Source: an uncultured bacterium
Lineage (GTDB): Bacteria; Abyssobacteria; SURF-5
Direction of reading: 5' to 3'
Assembly: GCA_964607485.1 (NCBI GenBank)
Contig: CAZSKP010000065.1
Span: 1 to 12,757 of the forward strand
DNA: 12,757 bases
Below, one piece after another: positions 1,920 to 12,757 of the stretch (positions are counted from its first letter, which is position 1; each line of letters starts with the position of its first letter). Under the pieces are notes generated by a model. It saw nothing but the letters and a program-made list of their open reading frames with translations, made no database searches and was not told the DNA's origin. Both the position numbers and the translations under genes were made by a program.

Positions 1920-4900
1920 GTGCCGGCTCCGGCCTCTAATCCAATAGAGATGTGTCGCCGCGAGGAGTTGCAGGACGGTCGATGCAAACTTCGACTGAAT
2001 ATCGACATGCACCTGAAAGGTCTATACCGGAAGATTTGCGAAAACGAGCCGTCTCACTTGAAGCGGATTAAGGTTCGCTTCGTCGTTATTGCATGCTTTA
2101 TCCTCTCAGCGGTTGCTTTTCGTCCACTCCTAAGCACTGATTTCTTCCTTCCCGTCCTACTGCTTTGCCTCATTGGATTCATAAGCAATCTGATTTCCCT
2201 CCTCTGGATAATGTGGGGCCGCGGACTCAAATACAATATCTATTTTGCAATATCTGTCGATATTGTTCTGATCACTATCGCACTCCATTACCTCGGTGGA
2301 ATCGAGAGCAATTTTTCATGGGTTTACGTTGTCCTGCTGGTCGCAGTTGCATCGCTTCATGGCATCAAGATCGGTATATATGTGGCCACCGTAAGTTCAC
2401 TCTGTTACTCAGCACTGCTCTTGGGGGAGTTCGCAGGGATAATCCCCCACGTGGATTTTCATATGATTCATCCGGCGTATCTTCATGAGGATAGCTCCTA
2501 TCTTTATTACAAGCTGCTGAGCAACTATATACTGTTCTTCGTCACTGCGGGCGTTTTGGGCACGCTATCTCAGAAGCTGATACAAAGCAAGAAACGACTG
2601 GAGCAGGATGTACAGGAGCGTACGAAGGAACTGACGATTGCCAACAAACAGCTTGAAATCATTTTTGAGTTTGCGCCGGATGCCTATTATCTGAATGATT
2701 TGCAGGGCACCTTTGTCGATGGCAACAAAGCTGCAGAGGAACTGACCGGTTACAGCAAAGGAGAGCTGATCGGGAAGAGTATCTTGGATTTGAATTTGCT
2801 TCCTTCAGACCAGCTTTCGAAAGCTTCTTTGGTTCTGAGTGAAAACAGACACGGAAAACCCACGGGACCCGATGAGTTCATTCTGCAGCGGAAGGATGGC
2901 CGCCGGCTCGTGGTGGAAATCCGCACCCATCCGGTTGAAATACAAAACCAGACCCTGGTCCTGGGTATTGCGCGTGACATCAGCGATCGCAAACGGGCAG
3001 AGGAGGCGCTCGAGAAGAGTGAGAAACGCCACCGGATCCTCGCAGAGAATGTGAAGGACGTGATCTGGACTATGGATCTGGAAAGCCTGAGATTTACGTA
3101 TTTCAGTCCCTCCGTGAAGGAGATGCGGGGTTACACTGTTGAGGAGGCAATGAAGCAGGGCTTGGAGGAAGTCCTGACTCCCGCTTCCTTTGAGGCAGCA
3201 ATGAGAGCGCTCTTGGAGGAACTCTCCCCGGAGAATGTGCAGAAAGAGGGTGTGAGCTGGTCTCGCACCATTGAGCTGGAACAAATCTGTAAGGACGGCT
3301 CAACAAAATGGGTCGAGGCTACGGTGACTTTCGTGAGGGATTCGGAGAACAAACCCGTTGAGCTGTTGGGTGTAACGCGCGACATCTCCGAACGGAAGCG
3401 GGCAGACGAAGCCATACGGCGCAGCGAGGAGCACTTCCGATTACTGATTGAGAATGCTTTGGATGCCATCGGGATTATGAAAGGCGATGGAACGATACTT
3501 TATGAAAGTCCATCAATTGAAAGGATTCTGGGATATAAACCGGAAGACGTCGCCGGCAAAAACTCACTGGAGGGCGTTCATCCGGATGACAGACAAAAAA
3601 TGTTGAATGCGCTCACTCAAGCAACAAATGACCCGGACACAATCACTCATGAGCAGTTCCGTTGCCGACACAGGGACGGTTCCTGGCGTGTGATCGAAAC
3701 CTTCGGGAAGAGATTCCCCAATACGGATAACCTTGTTGTGAATTACCGCGACATCACCGAGCAAAAACAGGCAGAAGAAGCATTGAGAAAAAGCGAACAA
3801 GAATTTAGGTTGACATTTGAAAGCGCAAAGGACGCAATTATTTGGGCAGACCCTGAGACAGGACTGATCACGAACTGCAACAAGGCGACTGAAATTCTTC
3901 TAGAGAAAGACCGGGCAGATATAATTGGCCATAATCAAACAATACTGCATCCGCCGGAAAAGTCGGAATACTATGCCGAGATGTTCAAGCGGCATCTGCA
4001 GGAGAAAGGCACTGCCGATGAGGAAGCAGAGGTCATTACCAGTTCAGGGAAGATAGTCCCCGTTCATATAACCGCCTCTGTATCTTCGGTAGCAGGAAGA
4101 ACAATTATGCAGGGAATCTTCCGCGACATCACCGAGCAAAAACGAGCAGAGGAGGAATTGCTGAAGAGCGAGAGGAGCTATCGCTTGCTCGCTGAGAACG
4201 TATCAGATGTCATCTGGACCATGGACTTCGACCTTAAGTTTCATTATGTCAGTCCGTCTACCGTCCAAGTCCGAGGTTACAGCATTGAAGAGGTACTGTC
4301 GCAGAGCATCGAGGAAGTCGTGACGCCCGATTCCCTGGAACGGGCGCACAAGGCATTGGCGGAAGAATTGGCCATGGAGGAAGACCCGCAAAGAGACCTG
4401 TTGCGCTCTCGAACCATCGAACTCGAGCAATTCCACAAAAACGGTTCTACAATCTGGACAGAGACGAAGATGACGTTCATACGTGACCTGGACAACCGGG
4501 CAATCGGGATCCTTGGAGTCACTCGTGACATTACGGAGCAGAGGCAACTGCGACAACAACTTCTCCAGGCCCAGAAGATGGAGAGCATTGGCACGCTAGC
4601 AGGCGGAATCGCTCATGATTTCAACAATATATTGGGTGGCATCTTGGGCTATGCTTCCTTCATGAAATCCAAGGTCGAAGCCGATCATCCCTTCTTCAAG
4701 TACCTTGATACTATTGAAAGAAGCTCAATGCGAGCCGCCGAGCTAACTGCCCAGCTCCTTGGCTTCGCGCGTCGTGGAAAATACGAGACAAGACCGTTGA
4801 ACCTCAATGAGGTCGTCAAAGAAACACTGGCAATTATTGAAAGGACTATATCCAAATCCATTGCCATAGAGGCTCGGGTGAGCCAGTCACTTCCGACGAT

Positions 4901-5696
4901 TGAGGCAGACGCGGGGCAATTGCAACAAGTTCTGATGAATCTATTTGTCAATGCCGCCGACGCCATGCCGGCCGGAGGAAGACTGATTGTCGAAACCGAT
5001 GCAGAGACGTTGAGTGAGGAATACGCTCGCTTGCATATGGGTGCCAAGCCGGGTTCGTACGTGAGACTGTCCGTTACTGATACAGGAATCGGCATGGACA
5101 AAGAAACGCAACAGAGGATTTTTGAGCCATTCTTCACGACAAAAAAAGACGGCAAGGGTACGGGACTCGGTTTAGCGATGGTCTATGGCGTCATCAAGAA
5201 TCATGAGGGGTATATTTCCTTGTATAGCGAGCTCGGCCACGGCACGACGTTCAAAATCTACATCCCGGTAAGTGGAAAGGCAGAGGATGAAAAGTCATTG
5301 GAAGTTCCGGTGCCTTATGGGAGAGGTGAGCTGATTCTTGTTGTCGATGACGAAAAGACCATTCGAGACTTCGCAAGAGTTGTGCTTGAAACCAATGGAT
5401 ATCGGGTAATCTTGGCCGAAGATGGGGAACAGGCCGTCAGAGTCTTCGAGGAACATAATGGTGACATCAGCTTGGTAATACTCGACATGGTCATGCCGAA
5501 TATGGGAGGCCATGAGGCGTTCTTAAGAATGAGGGAAAGCCATTCAGGGCTCAGAGCGCTTCTCTCTTCCGGCTACAGTCAGAATGGAAGAGCGCAGGAA
5601 ATCCTTGATAGCGGTGTCATGGGATTCCTCCAGAAACCTTATCAGTCAAATGCCCTCCTTTCCAAGGTAAGAAGTGTGATCGACGCAGAATTCTAG
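1920..5696 (+). CDS. membrane-bound multi-PAS hybrid sensor histidine kinase / response regulator (CckA-type transmitter)
   Basis: N-terminal ~5-6 hydrophobic helices (DIVLITIALHYLGGIESNFSWVY, PilS-like), five PAS/PAC units each ending RDI(S/T)(D/E), H-box AGGIAHDFNNIL, N-box QVLMNLFVNAADAM, DTGIGM, IFEPFFTTK, GTGLGL, C-terminal REC (ILVVDDE, LDMVMP, KPY). Start uncertain: GTG 1920 (AAGGGG upstream) or ATG 2007. Confidence 0.95.
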   Translation: MPAPASNPIEMCRREELQDGRCKLRLNIDMHLKGLYRKICENEPSHLKRIKVRFVVIACFILSAVAFRPLLSTDFFLPVLLLCLIGFISNLISLLWIMWGRGLKYNIYFAISVDIVLITIALHYLGGIESNFSWVYVVLLVAVASLHGIKIGIYVATVSSLCYSALLLGEFAGIIPHVDFHMIHPAYLHEDSSYLYYKLLSNYILFFVTAGVLGTLSQKLIQSKKRLEQDVQERTKELTIANKQLEIIFEFAPDAYYLNDLQGTFVDGNKAAEELTGYSKGELIGKSILDLNLLPSDQLSKASLVLSENRHGKPTGPDEFILQRKDGRRLVVEIRTHPVEIQNQTLVLGIARDISDRKRAEEALEKSEKRHRILAENVKDVIWTMDLESLRFTYFSPSVKEMRGYTVEEAMKQGLEEVLTPASFEAAMRALLEELSPENVQKEGVSWSRTIELEQICKDGSTKWVEATVTFVRDSENKPVELLGVTRDISERKRADEAIRRSEEHFRLLIENALDAIGIMKGDGTILYESPSIERILGYKPEDVAGKNSLEGVHPDDRQKMLNALTQATNDPDTITHEQFRCRHRDGSWRVIETFGKRFPNTDNLVVNYRDITEQKQAEEALRKSEQEFRLTFESAKDAIIWADPETGLITNCNKATEILLEKDRADIIGHNQTILHPPEKSEYYAEMFKRHLQEKGTADEEAEVITSSGKIVPVHITASVSSVAGRTIMQGIFRDITEQKRAEEELLKSERSYRLLAENVSDVIWTMDFDLKFHYVSPSTVQVRGYSIEEVLSQSIEEVVTPDSLERAHKALAEELAMEEDPQRDLLRSRTIELEQFHKNGSTIWTETKMTFIRDLDNRAIGILGVTRDITEQRQLRQQLLQAQKMESIGTLAGGIAHDFNNILGGILGYASFMKSKVEADHPFFKYLDTIERSSMRAAELTAQLLGFARRGKYETRPLNLNEVVKETLAIIERTISKSIAIEARVSQSLPTIEADAGQLQQVLMNLFVNAADAMPAGGRLIVETDAETLSEEYARLHMGAKPGSYVRLSVTDTGIGMDKETQQRIFEPFFTTKKDGKGTGLGLAMVYGVIKNHEGYISLYSELGHGTTFKIYIPVSGKAEDEKSLEVPVPYGRGELILVVDDEKTIRDFARVVLETNGYRVILAEDGEQAVRVFEEHNGDISLVILDMVMPNMGGHEAFLRMRESHSGLRALLSSGYSQNGRAQEILDSGVMGFLQKPYQSNALLSKVRSVIDAEF
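3746..4143 (+). repeat. 23-bp exact intragenic direct repeat (3746-3768 and 4121-4143) flanking the fourth PAS domain
   Basis: CCGCGACATCACCGAGCAAAAAC occurs twice, 375 bp (125 codons) apart, encoding RDITEQK linkers. Confidence 0.85.
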
Positions 5697-5857: not shown

Positions 5858-6292
5858 TTATTTTGCCCCCAACAGTCTAATTCCCCTCTCCACATCAAAA
5901 TGTCTCTTCATTTCGAGGGCATCGAATCTGTAAATCACGATCTCCACCAAATAGGCGACCTCGCATCCATGCTCGATGTGTCCGCCCTGAGCTTCTTTGT
6001 CCGCACAGGAAACAACACCATGCAAGTGCGGTTCTCCATCTGCAATTATGCCGCTCACACTAAGCAGCTCGAGCGGCTGCTCCAAAGCGAATATCGCGTC
6101 TTCCGGGGGGAAATCTGTGTGAATTATGTAGTGCATACGACAGGTCTTCAACGTCCCGATTCCCGAAACCACGACCCCGTTCCGGATGCCATGCTTCTTG
6201 ATCGCTTCCTCAATGGATTCGAGAAGCATCTCGCTTGGACCTAGTCCGATAGTAATGATTTCAACTTGCCCCTGATAGGTCATTACATTCAT
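5858..6292 (-). CDS. PPC domain / DUF296 family protein
   Basis: 144 aa with LGPSEMLLESI, VVSGIGTL, LELLSVSGII, HLHGVVS and GGHI (HxH...GGH metal-binding triad typical of bacterial DUF296). RBS AGGAG (6299-6303, - strand). Confidence 0.9.
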   Translation of the reverse strand: MNVMTYQGQVEIITIGLGPSEMLLESIEEAIKKHGIRNGVVVSGIGTLKTCRMHYIIHTDFPPEDAIFALEQPLELLSVSGIIADGEPHLHGVVSCADKEAQGGHIEHGCEVAYLVEIVIYRFDALEMKRHFDVERGIRLLGAK

Positions 6293-6662
6293 GGTCTTCT
6301 CCTATCAATGACCATCCGCTCCGGTCTCTTCTGGTGGACCAACTCATCCGTATCGCATACGCCTTCCTCTATGATATATCCTCGAGCGCACATTCCGTTT
6401 TCATGTCTGAGGGCAAAACACCCGCCTTCACGTACGAGGGAAACACTGTGGCTACCACGGGACCGCGTGTATCCGAGACCGTTGTTCAGTTCACGGAAAG
6501 ATTTACGCCATCACGCCATTGAGAGATTCTGGCGTGCCGGAGGATTCCAGTTTGAGCATTGTCTCTTGTATGAAGTCTCCCTCTTTTTCAAGGAAGTATA
6601 CATCATCGGGGATTGCGGTACCAAGAGCCTCAGTTTTCGTCGCCTCTTCGGAGTGCAACCTC

Positions 6663-6920
6663 CGCCCATCCGTCCATCGCCTTGCTGTAGAACTCGGAAC
6701 CGTTATCCACCTGGATGCTTCTTGGCATACCGTGCATCTTCCGAAGATTCTCCGGGCAGGAAAGAACCCGCTCGCCCGTCGACGAGATGCCCGGCACATC
6801 GGCGAGCGATTCGCGGGCGGGTGGCTCAAGCGCCGTCAACGGCCTGAAGCGGCGCCCGTCTTCAACCCGATTCGCTATGAAATCCATTGTCCGGCGCTCA
6901 CTGGGTCCGGTGCGTGCCAT
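6663..6920 (-). pseudogene. decayed IS3-family (IS407-group-like) transposase fragment, integrase core
   Basis: PSERRTMDFIANRVEDGRRFRPLT...RESLA...GERV...GMPRSIQVDNGSEFYSKAMDGWA matches the recalled IS3 OrfB pattern PNERWSMDF..D.L.DGRRFR.LT..D.FTRE.LA...DNG.EF.S.A...WA. Two catalytic Asp present; conserved W and D degraded; the catalytic Glu region and OrfA are missing; no IRs seen. Confidence 0.85.
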
Positions 6921-6986
6921 GAACGGATAGCCCGCCCCAACGCATCGGCGAAGGTCTCGGAAGGCAGAGAATTTTTAAATAGTTTC

Positions 6987-7014
6987 TTGCGAATGGGCTC
7001 ATATGTGATATTCT
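6987..7014 (+). promoter_or_regulatory. candidate sigma70 promoter of the cytochrome/bc operon
   Basis: TTGCGA (6987-6992), 16 nt, TATTCT (7009-7014) with extended -10 TG (7006-7007). AT-rich UP-like tract at 6970-6985. Confidence 0.45.
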
Positions 7015-7137
7015 TGTAACAGATGCCTTGCTGCACCCTTGCCGGCTTGAAAGGGGAACCCGGCCGGCGCGGCCTATTGAATTCCCGACAAAGGGTCAAG
7101 TCTGTCCGAGGTCATAACCATCTGCACCGTAAAGCAT

Positions 7138-7872
7138 ATGAACAGCAAGAGATGCGTGCTTTCAGCATTGGGCGCCATTCTATTCTTGTTCGCCCTCCAC
7201 GCGGCAAATGCACGGGCCCAGCAGCCTAACGCCTGCATCACCTGCCACGAATTCCTCGGCGGCTCGCTGGCCGAGCCCGTCGAAAAATGGAAGGGCTCTA
7301 TCCACCAGCAAAATGGAGTCACGTGTGATTACTGCCATCACGGCAATCCTGAAGTGGACGTGGGCAATATACGCGGGCTGTCTTCCGAGCAGTTTACCAG
7401 TAAGCAGGCCAGCGCCATGTCCAAGGCCCAGGGCTTTGTGGGCATACCCTCGGGTCAGGCCCTGTTTGACGTCTGCGAACAATGCCACAGCTCCTCAGTG
7501 GACAGGTACGCAAACAGCATCATGGGCAAGGCGTATCTTGAGAACAAGGGGGGACCCTCGTGCATCATCTGCCACAACGCCCACAGAAATGCCATGCCGG
7601 AGGTTCCGAAGACCTGCGAGAGATGCCACAAGGAGATCGCCGGGTTTGACCGCATAGACCCTATGAACGTGACGCAGTCGACCATCGCGGAGCTTTCAGG
7701 GATAAGAATAAGGCTTGCTCAGGAAAAGACGGCCGGCAACAGGCCCCCGCTGTTTCCGGAGTTCCCGGAAGACCTCGAATCGTTCCAGATAGGGTTCGTG
7801 GCCTTCGGTGCGGTTATCGTCCTGCTTGCAATAGGCTATATTGTCCATATGGCGCTTGAAAGAGGGAGATAG
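7138..7872 (+). CDS. pentaheme cytochrome c with Sec signal peptide and C-terminal membrane anchor (putative c-subunit of the bc complex)
   Basis: Five CxxCH (CITCH, CDYCH, CEQCH, CIICH, CERCH); signal peptide ending ARA|QQ; C-terminal TM helix IGFVAFGAVIVLLAIGYIV followed by a basic tail. Confidence 0.93.
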   Translation: MNSKRCVLSALGAILFLFALHAANARAQQPNACITCHEFLGGSLAEPVEKWKGSIHQQNGVTCDYCHHGNPEVDVGNIRGLSSEQFTSKQASAMSKAQGFVGIPSGQALFDVCEQCHSSSVDRYANSIMGKAYLENKGGPSCIICHNAHRNAMPEVPKTCERCHKEIAGFDRIDPMNVTQSTIAELSGIRIRLAQEKTAGNRPPLFPEFPEDLESFQIGFVAFGAVIVLLAIGYIVHMALERGR

Positions 7873-7873
7873 C

Positions 7874-8137
7874 GTGAGCTTCAAGGTTATAGGGCAAAAG
7901 AAGCCTTCGTATTCCAAAGGCGCCATGGCGGCCATGGCGGCGCTGGCCGTCCTGCTTTTGGGCATGGCGGCCGCCTTCGCCTATCTAATGGTTTCCGGCA
8001 AGGGCAGCGACTACGTGCTCGGAATGCTGCTGGCCTTTGAGTTTCTGGTCGCCGGAGCCGAGGTCATCGTATATGCGCGGTACTTCATGGGATTCAGGGA
8101 GGTATCGGAGGACCGCGACGAGGAGCTCCTGTGGTAA
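7874..8137 (+). CDS. small two-TM membrane protein (positional equivalent of Thermus FbcX)
   Basis: GTG at 7874 with SD GGGAG (7864-7868), 1 nt after the previous stop; 87 aa with two hydrophobic helices and an acidic tail; stop overlaps the Rieske start. The ORF-track start 7841 lies inside the upstream gene. Confidence 0.82.
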   Translation: MSFKVIGQKKPSYSKGAMAAMAALAVLLLGMAAAFAYLMVSGKGSDYVLGMLLAFEFLVAGAEVIVYARYFMGFREVSEDRDEELLW

Positions 8138-8745
8138 GCCGAATTGCCAACGGCAAAGAAGAGAAGGCGGGAATAACCCGGAGAAGGTTCACCCTTGGCC
8201 TGCTCCTGGCCTCCGTGGCGGGCGCGGTGGGCTCCGTCTTTACGCTTCTGAAGGTTCTGTCCACCGCCAAACGGGGTGGCGGCTACGTGACGACCATCAA
8301 GCCGGGAGACCGCCTCATCTATGCCGAGGGCGGAAACGAGGGGAACCCCATGAAGGCCTCCTCGTTCAAGCCGGGCGACGCCGTGCTCGCCTATCCAGAG
8401 GGCAAAACCTCGAATCTCGCGAACCTCGTCCAGCTCATCAGACTCGATGAAAAGGCGTTCACCCCGCCCACCGACATTTCGCTCACCGACCAGGGTTTTG
8501 TGGCCTACAGCGCCATATGCACGCATCTCGGGTGCAAAGTATCGTGGGTGGAAGACCAGCGGTCGCCCGACGCTTCGTACACGGAATGTCTCTGCCATAA
8601 CAGCATATTCGACCCGGCGCGGGGGGCCAAGGTCATTGGGGGCCCGGCACCCATTGCGCTGGCGCAGATAGGCGTGAAGGTGACGGCTGACGGGTCGCTC
8701 GCCTTTACAAGCGATTTCAAAGGCCCGATAGGGCCGCAGGTATAG
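8131..8745 (+). CDS. qcrA: Rieske [2Fe-2S] subunit of a quinol:cytochrome c oxidoreductase
   Basis: Tat motif ITRRRFTL plus TM helix; box I CTHLGC, box II CLCHNSIF; GGPAP loop; SD GAGGAG before GTG. Resembles recalled Thermus thermophilus FbcF (KPGD.L.YA.GG, VLAYP, G.VAYSA.CTHLGC, GA.VI.GP.P, F.GP.G). Confidence 0.95.
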   Translation: MVSRIANGKEEKAGITRRRFTLGLLLASVAGAVGSVFTLLKVLSTAKRGGGYVTTIKPGDRLIYAEGGNEGNPMKASSFKPGDAVLAYPEGKTSNLANLVQLIRLDEKAFTPPTDISLTDQGFVAYSAICTHLGCKVSWVEDQRSPDASYTECLCHNSIFDPARGAKVIGGPAPIALAQIGVKVTADGSLAFTSDFKGPIGPQV

Positions 8746-8759
8746 ACGCGGGAGGGCAG

Positions 8760-9992
8760 ATGTTCTACAGGTGGTTCGAAGAAAGGCTCGAACTTGGAAA
8801 GTTCAAGGCCAAGTTTCTGGCCAAGACCTTCCCCACCCACCCCGTTTTTCTGCTCGGGGAGGTAGCCCTGTTCTCATTCATCACACTCGTCATTACGGGC
8901 GTCTTTCTCGGATTCCTCTACGAGCCCTCCACGAAGACGGTCTCCCTCTTCGGCGCGATGGTCCCCTCGGCCTACGCAAGCGTGGTGAAGATAGACCTCC
9001 TGCCAATGGGCATGATAATACGCCGCATACACCACTGGTCGGCGATGATAATGATAGCCGCGATCCTCGCCCACCTGATAAGGGTCTACTTCACCTCGGC
9101 CTACCGGAAACCGAGGGAGATAAACTGGCTGGTCGGCCTGAGCCTCTGGATCATGTCGATGGGCGCCGCGTTCACCGGGTATCTGCTGCCCTACAGCCAG
9201 TTCTCGGTGACGGCCACGTCCATAGCCTACTTCGTGGCGAAGTCCGTGCCGTGGGTGGGCGACTGGGCTTCGAGGCTCCTCTTTGCCGGCGGGTTCCCGT
9301 CGGAGGGAACCGTGCCCCGCTTCTTCTTTTTGCACGTCATGCTGATACCGGCGGTGATTATAGGGCTCATCAGCCTCCACCTGGTAATACTTGTGAAGCA
9401 GAAGCACACCGAGCCGGCGTCCAACCGAAAGAGGAAGGAGGCGGAGGGAGGCAAGAGGCTCATCGGCATCCCCTTATGGCCGGAGCAGGCCGTTATCAGC
9501 ATATCTTTTTACCTCTTCCTCTTATTCGTCATCGTCCTGATAGCTACCCATATCCCCTTGAACCCCGTAGAAAAATACGGACCGCCTTCGCCCGAGACCC
9601 CCGTCATGCGGCCCGACTGGTATTTTCTCGTGGTCTACGGTATCCTTAAATTGATACCGGGGACACTGTCGTTTTCGGTCTTCGGAGGGAAGATTACCCC
9701 TGAGACCATCGGCGGCGTCATATTCCCCGGGCTGTCTTTTCTTGTTTTTGCGTTAATACCGTTTCTTGACAGAGCGAAGGAACCCCAGCATTACATCGAA
9801 AATCCCCTTCGCAGGCCCTTCATGACGTCATTCGGCGTCGGGGGCGGCGTATTCTTCTGCATGACCGTCGTGGCCGGCTATATAGACGTGCTCCACATTA
9901 CGCCCAGGGATATGACGGTCTACCTCGTCATTGCGAGCGTGGCGGCATGGGCCTTCTCCTATGCGGCGCTGCGCCTTTACAACAGAAAGTGA
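8760..9992 (+). CDS. qcrB: cytochrome b subunit (unsplit) of the Rieske/cytochrome b complex
   Basis: 410 aa polytopic protein; heme-b ligands H91/H105 and H192/H207; AYRKPREINW, FTGYLLPY, Qo motif PDWY (285-288); no heme-ci Cys in helix A (LGEVALFSF). RBS GGGAGGG. Confidence 0.96.
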   Translation: MFYRWFEERLELGKFKAKFLAKTFPTHPVFLLGEVALFSFITLVITGVFLGFLYEPSTKTVSLFGAMVPSAYASVVKIDLLPMGMIIRRIHHWSAMIMIAAILAHLIRVYFTSAYRKPREINWLVGLSLWIMSMGAAFTGYLLPYSQFSVTATSIAYFVAKSVPWVGDWASRLLFAGGFPSEGTVPRFFFLHVMLIPAVIIGLISLHLVILVKQKHTEPASNRKRKEAEGGKRLIGIPLWPEQAVISISFYLFLLFVIVLIATHIPLNPVEKYGPPSPETPVMRPDWYFLVVYGILKLIPGTLSFSVFGGKITPETIGGVIFPGLSFLVFALIPFLDRAKEPQHYIENPLRRPFMTSFGVGGGVFFCMTVVAGYIDVLHITPRDMTVYLVIASVAAWAFSYAALRLYNRK

Positions 9993-10004
9993 ACGGAGGT
10001 AGCG

Positions 10005-10760
10005 ATGTCGAAGGTTCATAATGTCCTGGTCTTTCTTCTCGTGGCGGGCGGCGTCCTGGTGCTCGCCCCGCTGGCCCGGCCCGCCGGGGGCGAAGAGACG
10101 GAGAATTACTGTGTCCAGTGCCACCTCAAGCTCCTCACAAGCAGCTTTGTGGCCGTGAGGTCGCACGACTGGAAGGGCTCAGTACACCAGAAGCACGGCG
10201 TCACCTGCGACAAGTGCCACGGCGGAAACCCCCATGCCGCCGACCAGAAGGAGGCGCACGTCGGGGTCCTCGGCTCGAGCGATCCCCGGAGCAGCGTCTA
10301 CTTCAAGAACACCCCCTCCACCTGTGGCAAGTGCCACGGCGCGGAGCTTTACGAGTTCTCACGAAGCAACCATTACGAGATGCTCGAATCCGAGGGCAAA
10401 GGGCCTACATGCGTGACCTGCCACGGCTCAATGGTCGTGACCGTCCTCAGCCCCGACGACGTGGCGGCCGTGTGCGACAGATGCCATAACGAGCGGATGG
10501 GGATATTCCCCTACGTCCCCCAGAAGGCGAGGGCCGTTCTCCTCTTGCTGAGGGAAAGCATGGCCCTGGCGGATGCGGCCAGTAAGCTATATCATCCCGC
10601 GGAGGGCAGTCCCGACGCCGCATATTTGACGGACGCCCAGTCGGACCTCCACACCGCCAAGCTCGACTGGCATCGCTTCGACCTCGACACTCTTACGGAC
10701 CACCTGCAGGATGCGTACAATTCCCTGCAGAAGCTCTCCGGGGAAAGCGATAACAAATAA
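10005..10760 (+). CDS. periplasmic pentaheme cytochrome c with helical C-terminal domain
   Basis: Five CxxCH (CVQCH, CDKCH, CGKCH, CVTCH, CDRCH); hydrophobic signal peptide; RBS GGAGGT. Paralogous to 7138-7872 (WKGSxHQxxGVTCDxCHxGNP, GP(S/T)CxxCH). Confidence 0.93.
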   Translation: MSKVHNVLVFLLVAGGVLVLAPLARPAGGEETENYCVQCHLKLLTSSFVAVRSHDWKGSVHQKHGVTCDKCHGGNPHAADQKEAHVGVLGSSDPRSSVYFKNTPSTCGKCHGAELYEFSRSNHYEMLESEGKGPTCVTCHGSMVVTVLSPDDVAAVCDRCHNERMGIFPYVPQKARAVLLLLRESMALADAASKLYHPAEGSPDAAYLTDAQSDLHTAKLDWHRFDLDTLTDHLQDAYNSLQKLSGESDNK

Positions 10761-10863
10761 CCCCACGCTCGGCAACCTGCCAAGCGGAGTCAACGCCGCG
10801 GACGCAGCAGGAAGAGGAGTATGCTTCAGGCCGGGAATCTGCCGATGAGGACGAACCCTTTGG

Positions 10864-10910
10864 TGTTTCGGCTGGTCATGTCCGAAACAGGTGGACTCCC
10901 CTTGAGGGGA
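10864..10910. terminator. two hairpins between convergent operons (possible terminator or mRNA 3'-end structure)
   Basis: 8-bp stem TGTTTCGG (10864-10871) / CCGAAACA (10882-10889) and 5-bp stem TCCCC/GGGGA (10897-10910). No clear U-tract. Confidence 0.35.
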
Positions 10911-10921
10911 TGTGGGAGATG

Positions 10922-12304
10922 TCAGAACACAAGCCACGCAAGCAAGAATAGCGTGTTATTGTCAGAAGCGTCTCTGCCGAATCCATCGTAGTTCGAATGC
11001 GAGCCATTGAACTTGTCATATGCGATGTACATCAGAGAGAACTTGGGTTGAAAGAACCGGCGGTTGCCGTTGAACGGCAGATAGTCCACTTCCAAGACAA
11101 CGCCGTTGCTATTCGGCTTGCCTGTTCTGCTTCCGTCAACCTCCTCCGGAGCATAGAGGGTATTATCCCTGGGGCCCGTCGTCGCGAAGTAACCAGCCGT
11201 CCCGCCGACGAGCCCGAAGGGCGCCCTGTAGTAATAGTTGAGGTTGATTCTGAAAGTATTCAAGTGGCTGGATCGCCGACCTGTATCTCCCAACGCAAAA
11301 CTCGCATCCCAGTCCTGGTCTTCATGAATCCACGTGGTTTGCGCGGAGAAGATGTGCTTTTCGGTTATACATTGGTATTGAGCGTCCAACGCGATGTCGG
11401 TGAACCGGTCGGTATCACCATGCCTCATGCCTTCAGGGTAGATATCGGCGACCAGGCCGTACGTGCCCACTTCCAGGGATTGGTTGCCCCATTGGTGCTG
11501 TAAGGCAAGACGCCAGTATGGAACGGCATCGTCCACCATTACGTCGGTGCGTGTGCCGGCGCCAAGAAATTCGGTGATGCCCTCGTCGGCCGTACGGTAA
11601 ACGCTGATATTGGCGTAAATGAAGTCGTTCCAATAGCCATAGACCCCAATTCCGCCTACCTGTTGGTCCAACCCGCCGTCTATGATGGCGCCCGCTGCCG
11701 GAGTCGGGGCCACATCCGAACCTGCAGAAGGAACGCCCCATGTGGGGGTGCTGTTCCACACATCCTCGACGCTAGGACTATTATTGACGGTAATTCCGTA
11801 AATCAGATTCTTGCCGCCAAGGGACGTGTTGTTTGAATATCGGATATCCGTCATATCCAGGAAGAATTCGTCATCGACGCCGCTGTAAGTGGCCTGTACA
11901 AATGCACCAGTCTTTTGGTAGATTCGTCCTCCGTAGAATAGACTTGCTTCCTGCGGCAAATAGAAGAAATCATTCGTATCGGAGTCGGAAACCCTTGCCC
12001 ACTCGTCCTTTACCGAGTCATCCGGCAGCCCGTGTTCGACGTGGGTAAAGGATATCATCGCATGCGCCGCTATCGGGGGCGGAAACTCGTAGGGTTTGCT
12101 GCTCCTGCTCATCGTGTATCCGCCCATCTTGAACGCTCTCCCGAACGGGGTCAACTCCGGGAACAGCGTATGACAGGCGTTGCAGTATTGGCCCGTCTGA
12201 CGCGCAAAACTTGGGACCGCTGCGGCGTTTCCTGCGGTTACTGCGATAAGTAGAAAGGCAATTCCGAGCGCAAGAACCAGCTTCTCGATCTTGTACCCTG
12301 ACAT
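10922..12304 (-). CDS. cyc2: Cyc2-family outer-membrane monoheme cytochrome c-porin fusion (candidate Fe(II) oxidase / extracellular electron transfer protein)
   Basis: Signal peptide ending NAAA; then AVPSFARQT-GQY-CNACH-TLFPEL-TPFGRAFK, matching the Cyc2 signature AxPxFAR[Q/K][T/Y]...CxxCH...PxL. Remainder has amphipathic beta-strand character and ends in aromatic-rich LFLLAWLVF (C-terminal Phe). ATG 12304 preferred because SD GAGGTG is 5 nt upstream; ORF-track GTG is at 12310. Confidence 0.9.
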   Translation of the reverse strand: MSGYKIEKLVLALGIAFLLIAVTAGNAAAVPSFARQTGQYCNACHTLFPELTPFGRAFKMGGYTMSRSSKPYEFPPPIAAHAMISFTHVEHGLPDDSVKDEWARVSDSDTNDFFYLPQEASLFYGGRIYQKTGAFVQATYSGVDDEFFLDMTDIRYSNNTSLGGKNLIYGITVNNSPSVEDVWNSTPTWGVPSAGSDVAPTPAAGAIIDGGLDQQVGGIGVYGYWNDFIYANISVYRTADEGITEFLGAGTRTDVMVDDAVPYWRLALQHQWGNQSLEVGTYGLVADIYPEGMRHGDTDRFTDIALDAQYQCITEKHIFSAQTTWIHEDQDWDASFALGDTGRRSSHLNTFRINLNYYYRAPFGLVGGTAGYFATTGPRDNTLYAPEEVDGSRTGKPNSNGVVLEVDYLPFNGNRRFFQPKFSLMYIAYDKFNGSHSNYDGFGRDASDNNTLFLLAWLVF

Positions 12305-12341
12305 TTTCACACCTCTTTCTCAGAAATGTGCGGCCGCGCGT

Positions 12342-12757
12342 TCATTTGGATTTCAGATAGGCAATTACGTCGGCCACTTGTTCTTCGGTCAGATTCTGAT
12401 CGTACATCCGCACTCCGTTGGATTCCTTCAGCAACTGGACGGCGATGGGGTCGTTTTCGTTGAGCATCTTCTCGGGGTCGGAAATCCACTTGACGAGCCA
12501 CTCCGCCGATCTCCTTTCCGTCACTCCCTTGAGATCCGGCCCTATCCTCTTGCCTCCGCCAATGGTGTGGCACATGGTGCACTTCTGCTCGAATATTGCC
12601 TTCCCCTTATCGGGAGAACCCTCGGTCGATGCCTGCGGCGATTCCTTTGCCGGGTCTTTCGGAGCCGCCTGACTCGGCTCTTGGGATTTCAGATACGCGA
12701 GCACGTCGGCCACTTGTTCTTCGGTCAGATTCTGATCGTACATCCGCACTCCGTTGG
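12342..12757 (-). CDS. multi-domain class I cytochrome c with tandem near-identical domains (5' end outside window)
   Basis: GKAIFEQKCTMCHTIGGGKRIGPDL...W...P...VRMYDQNLTEEQVADVIAYL, a His/Met class I fold. The C-terminal part of a second copy (NGVRMYDQNLTEEQVADVLAYLKS) precedes a P/A/E/S-rich linker. Frame is open to the window edge. Confidence 0.9.
   Translation of the reverse strand, partial: NGVRMYDQNLTEEQVADVLAYLKSQEPSQAAPKDPAKESPQASTEGSPDKGKAIFEQKCTMCHTIGGGKRIGPDLKGVTERRSAEWLVKWISDPEKMLNENDPIAVQLLKESNGVRMYDQNLTEEQVADVIAYLKSK
12367..12757. repeat. 55-bp exact direct repeat (12367-12421 and 12703-12757), period 336 bp
   Basis: ACGTCGGCCACTTGTTCTTCGGTCAGATTCTGATCGTACATCCGCACTCCGTTGG occurs twice; GGATTTCAGATA is also shared at 12348-12359 and 12684-12695; 336 bp = 112 codons. 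Confidence 0.95.

Follow-up and report, generated by a model that had tools for sequence, protein, structure and literature searches.

A cyc2 gene adjoining a pentahaem Rieske/cytochrome b operon in an uncultured Abyssobacteria genome

A cyc2 module convergent with a pentahaem bc operon

This analysis concerns a locus in an uncultured bacterium of the Abyssobacteria (SURF-5 lineage; assembly GCA_964607485.1, here G000) at which cyc2, encoding an outer-membrane cytochrome-porin, adjoins an operon for a Rieske/cytochrome b (bc) complex with two pentahaem cytochromes c. The window is the whole of contig CAZSKP010000065.1 (C65), 12,757 bases in length, and its host is a metagenome-assembled genome (MAG) of 4.7 Mb with a completeness of 97.5% and a contamination of 2.6% (stated as 2.57%). 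On the forward strand, positions 7138-10760 hold a tight operon of five genes, separated by overlaps or by gaps of no more than 14 bases, in the order membrane-anchored pentahaem cytochrome c, a protein with two transmembrane helices (2-TM protein), a Rieske protein with a twin-arginine translocation (Tat) signal, cytochrome b and a second pentahaem cytochrome c. On the reverse strand, 10922-12757 carry a cytochrome c gene followed by cyc2, which converge on the bc operon across a 161-base spacer. All seven genes that a first-pass annotation of the sequence had described were found where it placed them, and its tally of 12 CxxCH haem-binding motifs resolves into 5+5+1+1. Scanning 6200-12757 for promoters and terminators revealed nothing terminator-like in the 161-base spacer and promoter-like sites at chance level.

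The gene at 10922-12310 (reverse strand) encodes 462 residues with one CxxCH, predicted to form a monohaem cytochrome fused to a 16-strand outer-membrane porin. As the description in Keffer et al. 2021 (PMC8406198) has it, a Cyc2 protein combines a signal peptide, a single CXXCH with AXPXFAR[Q/K][T/Y] upstream and PXL downstream, a length of at least 365 residues, and a 16-strand porin resembling OprP/OprO. The window's protein has the motif, the single haem site, the PxL, the length and the 16-strand barrel, in keeping with the first-pass call. Its motif string reads AVPSFARQT-GQY-CNACH-TLF-PEL: AVPSFARQT (31-39) stands three residues before C43, CNACH (43-47) is the sole CxxCH, and PEL occupies 51-53. 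Across 29 homologous sequences, F35, Q38, C43, C46, H47 and L53 are invariant and P51 nearly so. The signal peptide was recognized by eye as the hydrophobic LVLALGIAFLLIAVTAGNAAA preceding VPSF, and coincides with a helix at residues 5-25 of the AlphaFold2 (AF2) model. That model (predicted local distance difference test, pLDDT, 81.5; predicted template modelling score 0.80) has a small helical haem region and then 16 strands after residue 80. A Foldseek search with it returned 194 PDB matches at E <=0.001, the top ~50 of which are all porins of the outer membrane or proteins derived from porins, with OprP (2o4v) at rank 4 and OprO (4rjw) at rank 10, both at ~1e-7. Pfam and NCBIfam, neither of which holds a Cyc2 model, gave no matches to this protein. 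By the published sequence and fold criteria, the latter applied to a predicted structure, the 462-residue protein is a Cyc2-type cytochrome-porin.

The Cyc2 subfamily is large and unusually conserved, with at least 5,354 proteins at E <=0.001 among 8,000 scored. The best relative of the window's protein is 81% identical and others are 54-65% identical; among named relatives the nearest come from Thermodesulfobacteriota and Nitrospirae MAGs (57-61%), and the Cyc2 of a Thermodesulfovibrionales genome locus is 59% identical. A small monohaem cytochrome c gene lies on the same strand within 1 kb of cyc2 in 12 of 20 genome loci, and loci L004 and L017 provide two more cases, so that cytochrome c together with cyc2 forms the conserved unit.

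In the window, the gene directly upstream of cyc2 (12342-12757, reverse strand) encodes a class I cytochrome c with tandem domains (PF00034, 1.7e-18); only its 3' part is present, and the translation shows a repeat of the C-terminal segment. Its 5' end is open at the contig end and, because the window is a whole contig, the gene has been truncated by assembly. Elsewhere in the host genome, the end of contig C31 (C31:50288-50506) encodes the signal sequence and first haem domain of this cytochrome c, and the haem domain there is 93% identical to the window's at the DNA level. A contig from sequencing run X1 covers window positions 9783-12623 and then continues with letters identical to C31:50366-50395, while one contig from run X2 steps back by 336 bases, which is the signature of a tandem repeat. 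Taken together, the C31 domain, the X1 join and the X2 step indicate that the gene has at least two haem domains. The "repeat cytochrome c" of the first-pass annotation therefore stands as far as a repeat and two visible haem domains go, but the window holds only part of the gene. That annotation had also raised the possibility of a mis-assembled junction between the two modules; no sign of one was seen at 10760-10922, which the same X1 contig spans, and X1 depth is flat along the window at ~8.5-10. The X1 join of C65 to C31 passes through the repeated domain, and X1 is possibly the sample from which the window was assembled, which makes it weak as independent evidence for both junction and join. 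The locus sequence is present in four runs, all of them DNA and all from one sediment study.

The bc operon begins with c5TM (7138-7872), a cytochrome c of 244 residues with five CxxCH motifs, an N-terminal signal sequence and a C-terminal transmembrane anchor. The 2-TM protein that follows (7841-8137) has 98 residues, two hydrophobic helices and no Pfam family; its start is uncertain, orthologues having 87 residues. Its position is conserved across loci at 46-82% identity, it shows a weak NCBIfam match to the N-terminal transmembrane part of actinobacterial QcrA (E 0.0038), and a comparison with PDB sequences gave nothing meaningful. The Rieske 2Fe-2S subunit (8131-8745; PF00355) carries the Tat motif RRRF within a signal anchor and the two boxes CTHLGC and CLCHNS. 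Cytochrome b (8760-9992; 410 residues) is unsplit and matches PF13631 (1.3e-50), PF00033 (1.3e-27) and PF00032; its H91, H105, H192 and H207 and its Qo motif P285-D-W-Y288 are invariant in 14 of 14 sequences. The operon thus supplies both of the features looked for in a bc complex, namely an anchored Rieske protein with two boxes and a cytochrome b with four haem-ligand histidines and P-x-W-Y.

The last gene, c5sol (10005-10760), encodes a pentahaem cytochrome c of 251 residues with five CxxCH motifs and an N-terminal signal or anchor. It is 22-25% identical to the c5TM group and all five CxxCH align, and by this alignment the two cytochromes are paralogues. The AF2 model of c5sol (mean pLDDT 78.2) has a haem-binding core with a C-terminal three-helix extension. 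A fold search of the PDB with this model gave no match at E <=0.001, the best being OcwA at 0.029, followed by NrfA- and HAO-type proteins, and a profile search of PDB sequences returned only weak multihaem matches. No gene for a canonical monohaem cytochrome c1 or f lies in the operon and the flanking c-type cytochromes have five haem motifs each, which makes the complex non-canonical; c5TM is the probable replacement for cytochrome c1. A complex prediction for cytochrome b with c5TM (score 0.04, mark 0.32) gave no answer and is evidence for neither side.

The nearest structural relatives of the subunits are mixed. For the Rieske protein the best solved relatives are 3FOU and 1NYK (~1e-27), which we take to be the Thermus thermophilus Rieske protein, followed by actinobacterial QcrA (7e-12). 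For cytochrome b they are actinobacterial QcrB (3.4e-66), b6 (~1e-33) and proteobacterial b (~1e-30), and none of its 51 solved-structure matches is a Thermus-labelled cytochrome b chain. The NCBIfam models for the actinobacterial complex score below their cut-offs (QcrB, NF050120, 302.4 against 500; QcrA, 96.9 against 275), and the operon holds no dihaem QcrC as modelled in the NF050120-NF050122 set. The fbcCXFB genes of Thermus thermophilus are ordered cytochrome c, small transmembrane protein X, Rieske and cytochrome b, which presumably is the order that c5TM, the 2-TM protein, the Rieske protein and cytochrome b repeat. The operon departs from Thermus and from QcrABC alike in that its c subunit is a pentahaem protein where theirs have one haem or two, and in that a second pentahaem gene follows cytochrome b. 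The first-pass label of a "Thermus-type" complex has some support from the Rieske protein, on the assumption that its two best structures are indeed from Thermus; the nearest solved relative of cytochrome b is QcrB.

The remainder of the window holds genes of other kinds. The left half includes a short-chain dehydrogenase/reductase (SDR) gene (511-1356). It also includes a gene for a PAS-rich hybrid histidine kinase of 1,258 residues (1920-5696, forward strand), with an N-terminal PilS-like region of six transmembrane helices, five PAS domains, HisKA/HATPase and a receiver domain. The kinase gene lies on the same strand as the bc operon, ~1.4 kb upstream, and elsewhere is not kept beside it. 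A PCC-domain gene (5858-6292, reverse strand) follows, and the ~850 bases immediately upstream of the operon (6293-7137) contain no credible gene. Within them, 6630-6920 (reverse strand) may be a remnant of an integrase core (rve; PF00665, E 1.1e-4), a weak call at 22.8 bits against a cut-off of 32.6; no second copy was found in the genome.

Distribution of the bc operon and origin of the locus

To place the operon in a wider context, we used c5sol as the query of a metagenome scan, from which 80 of 91 loci were kept. At >=50% identity to c5sol there were 50 metagenome loci, 45 of which have cytochrome b directly upstream. Full five-gene loci number 23; gene order is identical in all of them, and identities range from 46 to 83%. 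Housekeeping genes make up most of the operon's neighbours, which vary between loci; this combination of conserved order and differing neighbours indicates that the bc operon is a self-contained module. Cytochrome b has 2,494 relatives, the best of them labelled Nitrospirota, and 20 of 301 Nitrospirota genomes carry c5sol at >=53% identity. Two variants were noted among the metagenome loci. In L086-L090, at ~40% identity, two tandem pentahaem genes are followed by a gap of ~0.8 kb and then by a 2-TM protein, Rieske and cytochrome b, an order that may correspond to a Methanoperedens-type cluster. In one locus an 802-residue protein with seven CxxCH is encoded directly upstream of the bc operon (L042:4322-6730).

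Comparison with related genomes points outside the host's own phylum for the source of the locus. This phylum comprises 11 species genomes in total, and c5sol has no match above 40% identity in any of the 10 besides the host. The only one with a match at E <=1e-25 is G010, which has two copies at 37-40% identity and no cytochrome b detected beside them. A close Cyc2 is likewise found in none of nine host family members, and for the SDR gene the phylum's other genomes gave no match above 43% identity. The window's cytochrome b, by comparison, is 88.7% identical to that of the Nitrospirota genome G327. C65 and the distal 20 kb of C31 both stand out in tetranucleotide composition, yet C31 also encodes a transketolase that shares 83% identity with its counterpart in family member G005, and the X1 join to C31 thereby ties the window to its host. 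Because the locus was found in none of the 10 other phylum genomes and its composition is unusual, while C31 carries a family-like transketolase, it looks like a recent acquisition and not a mis-binned contig. The donor was probably Nitrospirota-like, and Cyc2 is known to spread horizontally, according to the account in PMC12442345. The compositionally odd part of C31 that precedes the cytochrome c-cyc2 module also encodes a repeat-rich ORF (open reading frame) of 3,661 residues (C31:34312-45297) and a dihaem cytochrome c peroxidase (C31:48532-49695; PF03150).

Linkage between the cyc2 and bc modules

The first-pass annotation had proposed that the seven genes form a single electron conduit from the cell surface to the quinone pool, and had suggested a search for genomes in which cyc2 neighbours homologues of the bc and pentahaem genes. 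This search located two such metagenome loci, so it is not the case that the two never co-occur. In L069, cyc2 immediately precedes the bc operon and shares its strand, while in L068 cyc2 and a monohaem cytochrome c are divergently oriented upstream of it; the window, with its cyc2 module convergent and downstream, represents a third arrangement. In addition, two of the 20 genome loci have cyc2 next to other, non-orthologous types of Rieske/cytochrome b, in each case with both on one strand. One, from a Thermodesulfobacteriota MAG (L003:6989-11305), has an ORF of 848 residues that appears to be a fusion of cytochrome b, two class I cytochrome c domains and Rieske, followed on one strand by a monohaem cytochrome c and cyc2. 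The other, from Melioribacteraceae/Ignavibacteriales (L010:9992-14688), has cyc2, cytochrome c, Rieske and a cytochrome b fused to a dihaem c on one strand; L011 and L012 carry the same type of string, both truncated. In a quick tree, the Cyc2 proteins of the bc-linked loci are scattered over different parts.

Co-occurrence at the genome level extends this picture. A close Cyc2 occurs in 13 of the 301 Nitrospirota genomes: 4 of the 20 that carry the operon and 9 of the 281 that do not, a ~6-fold enrichment. Both genes are found in 4 genomes where 0.86 would be expected (p = 0.007 in a one-sided Fisher test, in which related genomes are not independent of one another).

Several observations weigh against a fixed partnership. 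Where the flank is informative, that is at least 1.5 kb long (upstream n=18, downstream n=28, either n=32), cyc2 adjoins the bc operon in just 2 of 32 metagenome loci and is not seen in the flanks available for the other 30; it is upstream in 2 of 18 and downstream in 0 of 28. The co-occurrence test ignores relatedness, 16 of the 20 operon-bearing Nitrospirota genomes have no close Cyc2, and in the 4 genomes with both, cyc2 and the operon are on different contigs. Conversely, c5sol was detected at E <=1e-20 in none of five other Cyc2-bearing genomes, and the 10.4 kb downstream of c5sol in G327, which has the closest operon, hold no cyc2. In the window itself the two units are convergent and therefore not co-transcribed, and a second Rieske/cytochrome b complex (on contig C5) and an alternative complex III (ACIII) in the genome could serve the same role. 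The one-conduit proposal is thus moderately supported: the adjacency recurs and co-occurrence is enriched, but the modules are mostly apart (2/32; 0/5). Minority adjacency and enriched co-occurrence alongside frequent separate occurrence lead us to regard coupling of cyc2 and the bc operon, judged from gene neighbourhoods, as plausible and recurrent yet facultative, again with moderate support.

One further candidate adjacency, in genome G236, was rejected: two contig ends lie near a possible join, but the 242-base tail after c5sol lacks a Cyc2 C-terminus. These last 242 bases (L125, G236:C92) contain an ORF that starts MKKLMIGISLIAFLLGGSYV after the bc operon and runs off the contig. Its start resembles a gene of 148 residues that precedes cytochrome c-cyc2 in another locus (L004:8755-9201), a resemblance that could be another link between the modules.

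Electron routes, known systems and significance

The host genome may offer several partners for such a pathway. The carbon monoxide dehydrogenase/acetyl-CoA synthase family (ACS/CdhC), a Wood-Ljungdahl enzyme, is present at 224 bits, as is the futalosine-pathway MqnA/D family at 185 bits, while a search for RuBisCO in the genome found none. A cbb3 oxidase is encoded at C9:131377-137243 (L122), with CcoN of 462 residues and a fused FixO/cytochrome c subunit of 327 residues, and adjoins an ActD/NrfD-type ACIII gene and a 5-haem ORF. A NarG-type nitrate reductase was considered as an electron acceptor and rejected (best TIGR01580 match 81 bits against a cut-off of 1084), and the DsrA family falls below its cut-off in this genome. 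The second Rieske complex, at C5:155006-159136 (L121), has a split cytochrome b of the b6 plus subunit IV type and is flanked by 5-haem and 9-haem cytochromes. Weak c5sol matches to ORFs of similar size (444-584 residues) in several family genomes suggest that this complex is the one native to the lineage. The genome has 29 ORFs with at least three CxxCH and a maximum of 26 haems. One cluster (C25:6931-28028) has ORFs with 26, 20, 16, 9, 7, 6 and 6 CxxCH together with an MtrB/PioB-like porin (C25:25514-25879; PF11854, 31.9 bits), and looks like a separate porin-cytochrome conduit.

We propose that two modules on acquired DNA would carry electrons from Fe(II), via Cyc2 and cytochrome c, to the cbb3 oxidase and/or through the bc complex, a proposal to which we give an even chance of being right. 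At the outer membrane, Cyc2 would accept electrons from Fe(II) in solution, and its haem would pass them to the periplasmic multi-domain cytochrome c. From there a downhill branch may lead to the genome's cbb3 oxidase, while a reverse or near-isopotential branch may run through the pentahaems and the Rieske centre to the menaquinone pool, feeding reductant to an organism with a Wood-Ljungdahl enzyme. The bc module would be a menaquinol-type Rieske/cytochrome b complex in which pentahaem c5TM acts as c1 and the paralogous c5sol has been added. What the analysis has established is which proteins the locus encodes, that each module is conserved, that the two adjoin repeatedly though in a minority of loci, and that the locus has an acquired character; from this we infer the exchange of electrons between the modules, the direction of flow and every redox property.

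Alternatively, the adjacency may be incidental. The pentahaem complex would then be the ordinary complex III of numerous uncultured anaerobes and microaerophiles, passing electrons from menaquinol through cytochrome c to cbb3 or other reductases, and the cyc2 module would be an iron-oxidation cassette independent of it, both being mobile and having settled in the same island. The unrelated housekeeping neighbours of the bc operon in most loci fit this explanation, as do the rarity of cyc2 beside it (2/32), the lack of the operon in five Cyc2 genomes (0/5), the convergent orientation, the possible integrase remnant at 6630-6920 and the horizontal spread of Cyc2 described in PMC12442345. It accounts less readily for three different arrangements of cyc2 beside this operon, for the two further phyla that string cyc2 with other Rieske/cytochrome b complexes and for the ~6-fold enrichment in genome-level co-occurrence. 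Moreover, two given genes should seldom come to lie side by side by chance among the ~4,000 genes of a genome. We consider an incidental origin possible, if doubtful.

A different alternative keeps the modules connected but turns the flow outward, from menaquinol through Rieske/cytochrome b, the pentahaems, the multi-domain cytochrome c and Cyc2 to Fe(III) or a partner cell. Forward operation is normal for bc complexes, the genome encodes many multihaem cytochromes (29 such ORFs, up to 26 haems), and a porin of the MtrB/PioB kind, as in the C25 cluster, is typical of metal reducers. However, we know of no Cyc2 that reduces Fe(III). The C25 cluster would already serve outward transfer, and every tested Cyc2 covered in the accounts of PMC8406198, PMC7029218 and PMC13647500 acts as an Fe(II) oxidase, so that we judge outward flow through this locus to be improbable. 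That the locus is an artefact, through a chimeric junction or a mis-binned contig of another organism, for example one of the Nitrospirota, is suggested by the outlying tetranucleotide composition of the contig, the Nitrospirota labels of the best relatives, the failure to find the locus in the other 10 phylum genomes and the stated contamination of 2.57%. Against this stand the even-depth X1 contig, which spans 9783-12623 and continues into C31 (with a repeat at the join, and X1 possibly the source sample), the family-like transketolase on C31 (83% identity) and the flat X1 depth of the window (~8.5-10), and we regard an artefact as very unlikely indeed.

The proposed inward route from Fe(II) has clear precedents. 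In the standard model, as outlined in PMC7029218, electrons pass from Cyc2 to a periplasmic cytochrome c and on to a bc complex working in reverse or to an oxidase. The natural comparisons are Acidithiobacillus ferrooxidans, with its rus operon (cyc2-cyc1...) and petI bc1 complex, and the neutrophilic iron oxidisers, as far as they are described in PMC7029218, PMC8406198 and PMC13741234. These systems and the window have in common an outer-membrane monohaem cytochrome-porin, an adjoining class I cytochrome c gene and a Rieske/cytochrome b complex proposed to send electrons uphill to quinone. The window differs in that its bc complex physically adjoins the cyc2 module, in that two pentahaems stand in for cytochrome c1, probably with menaquinone as the quinone, and in that its host has a Wood-Ljungdahl enzyme and not RuBisCO. 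In an anoxic-sediment setting, PMC13647500 reports that Cyc2 of sediment Thermodesulfovibrionia oxidised Fe(II) in E. coli. Going by the description there, 'Candidatus Mariimomonas ferrooxydans' resembles the window's host in having Cyc2, an anoxic-sediment lineage and Wood-Ljungdahl genes; that description mentions no bc complex beside Cyc2, and in the main text of the paper 'Rieske' and 'bc1' each occur 0 times.

Two-pentahaem bc clusters have a precedent of their own. 'Ca. Methanoperedens nitroreducens' has a cluster, MPEBLZ_00816-00823, in which Rieske and cytochrome b are accompanied by a pair of pentahaem cytochromes and two hypothetical proteins; in the account of PMC4683180 it is proposed to carry quinol electrons to extracytoplasmic acceptors. 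Going by composition as given in that text, it shares with the window a Rieske protein, cytochrome b, two pentahaems and small membrane proteins, but it is archaeal, has an extra cytochrome c and another gene order, and is linked to nitrate reductase instead of Cyc2. The first-pass statement that the combination had not been described was therefore too strong as regards the pathway logic and the two-pentahaem cluster, both of which are published, although our literature search found no paper describing this particular clustering of cyc2 with a pentahaem bc operon. Nor did that search turn up experimental work on the five-gene pentahaem bc complex. The best-supported view of the pathway logic is that of the standard iron-oxidiser model realised with unusual parts.

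A more far-reaching idea is that the two-pentahaem complex works at low potential and is readily reversible, a menaquinone:cytochrome c module through which Fe(II) electrons might enter menaquinone cheaply in Cyc2 anaerobes, and that cyc2 and bc genes might travel together between phyla as a mobile 'iron-oxidation kit'. Such a module, if real, would support anaerobic or micro-oxic autotrophy driven by iron via the Wood-Ljungdahl pathway. We offer this as speculation, with little expectation that it holds in full.

In neutrophilic and anaerobic iron oxidisers, the route of Fe(II) electrons from Cyc2 to quinone is still a model only, and the loci in which cyc2 stands beside Rieske/cytochrome b genes provide concrete candidate partners for it. 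Pentahaem bc complexes of this five-gene type occur commonly among uncultured Nitrospirota of sediments and in other lineages; values for their haem potentials and the direction in which electrons flow would help to model iron, carbon and nitrogen cycling in anoxic sediments. The locus further illustrates clearly how respiratory modules are transferred across phyla.

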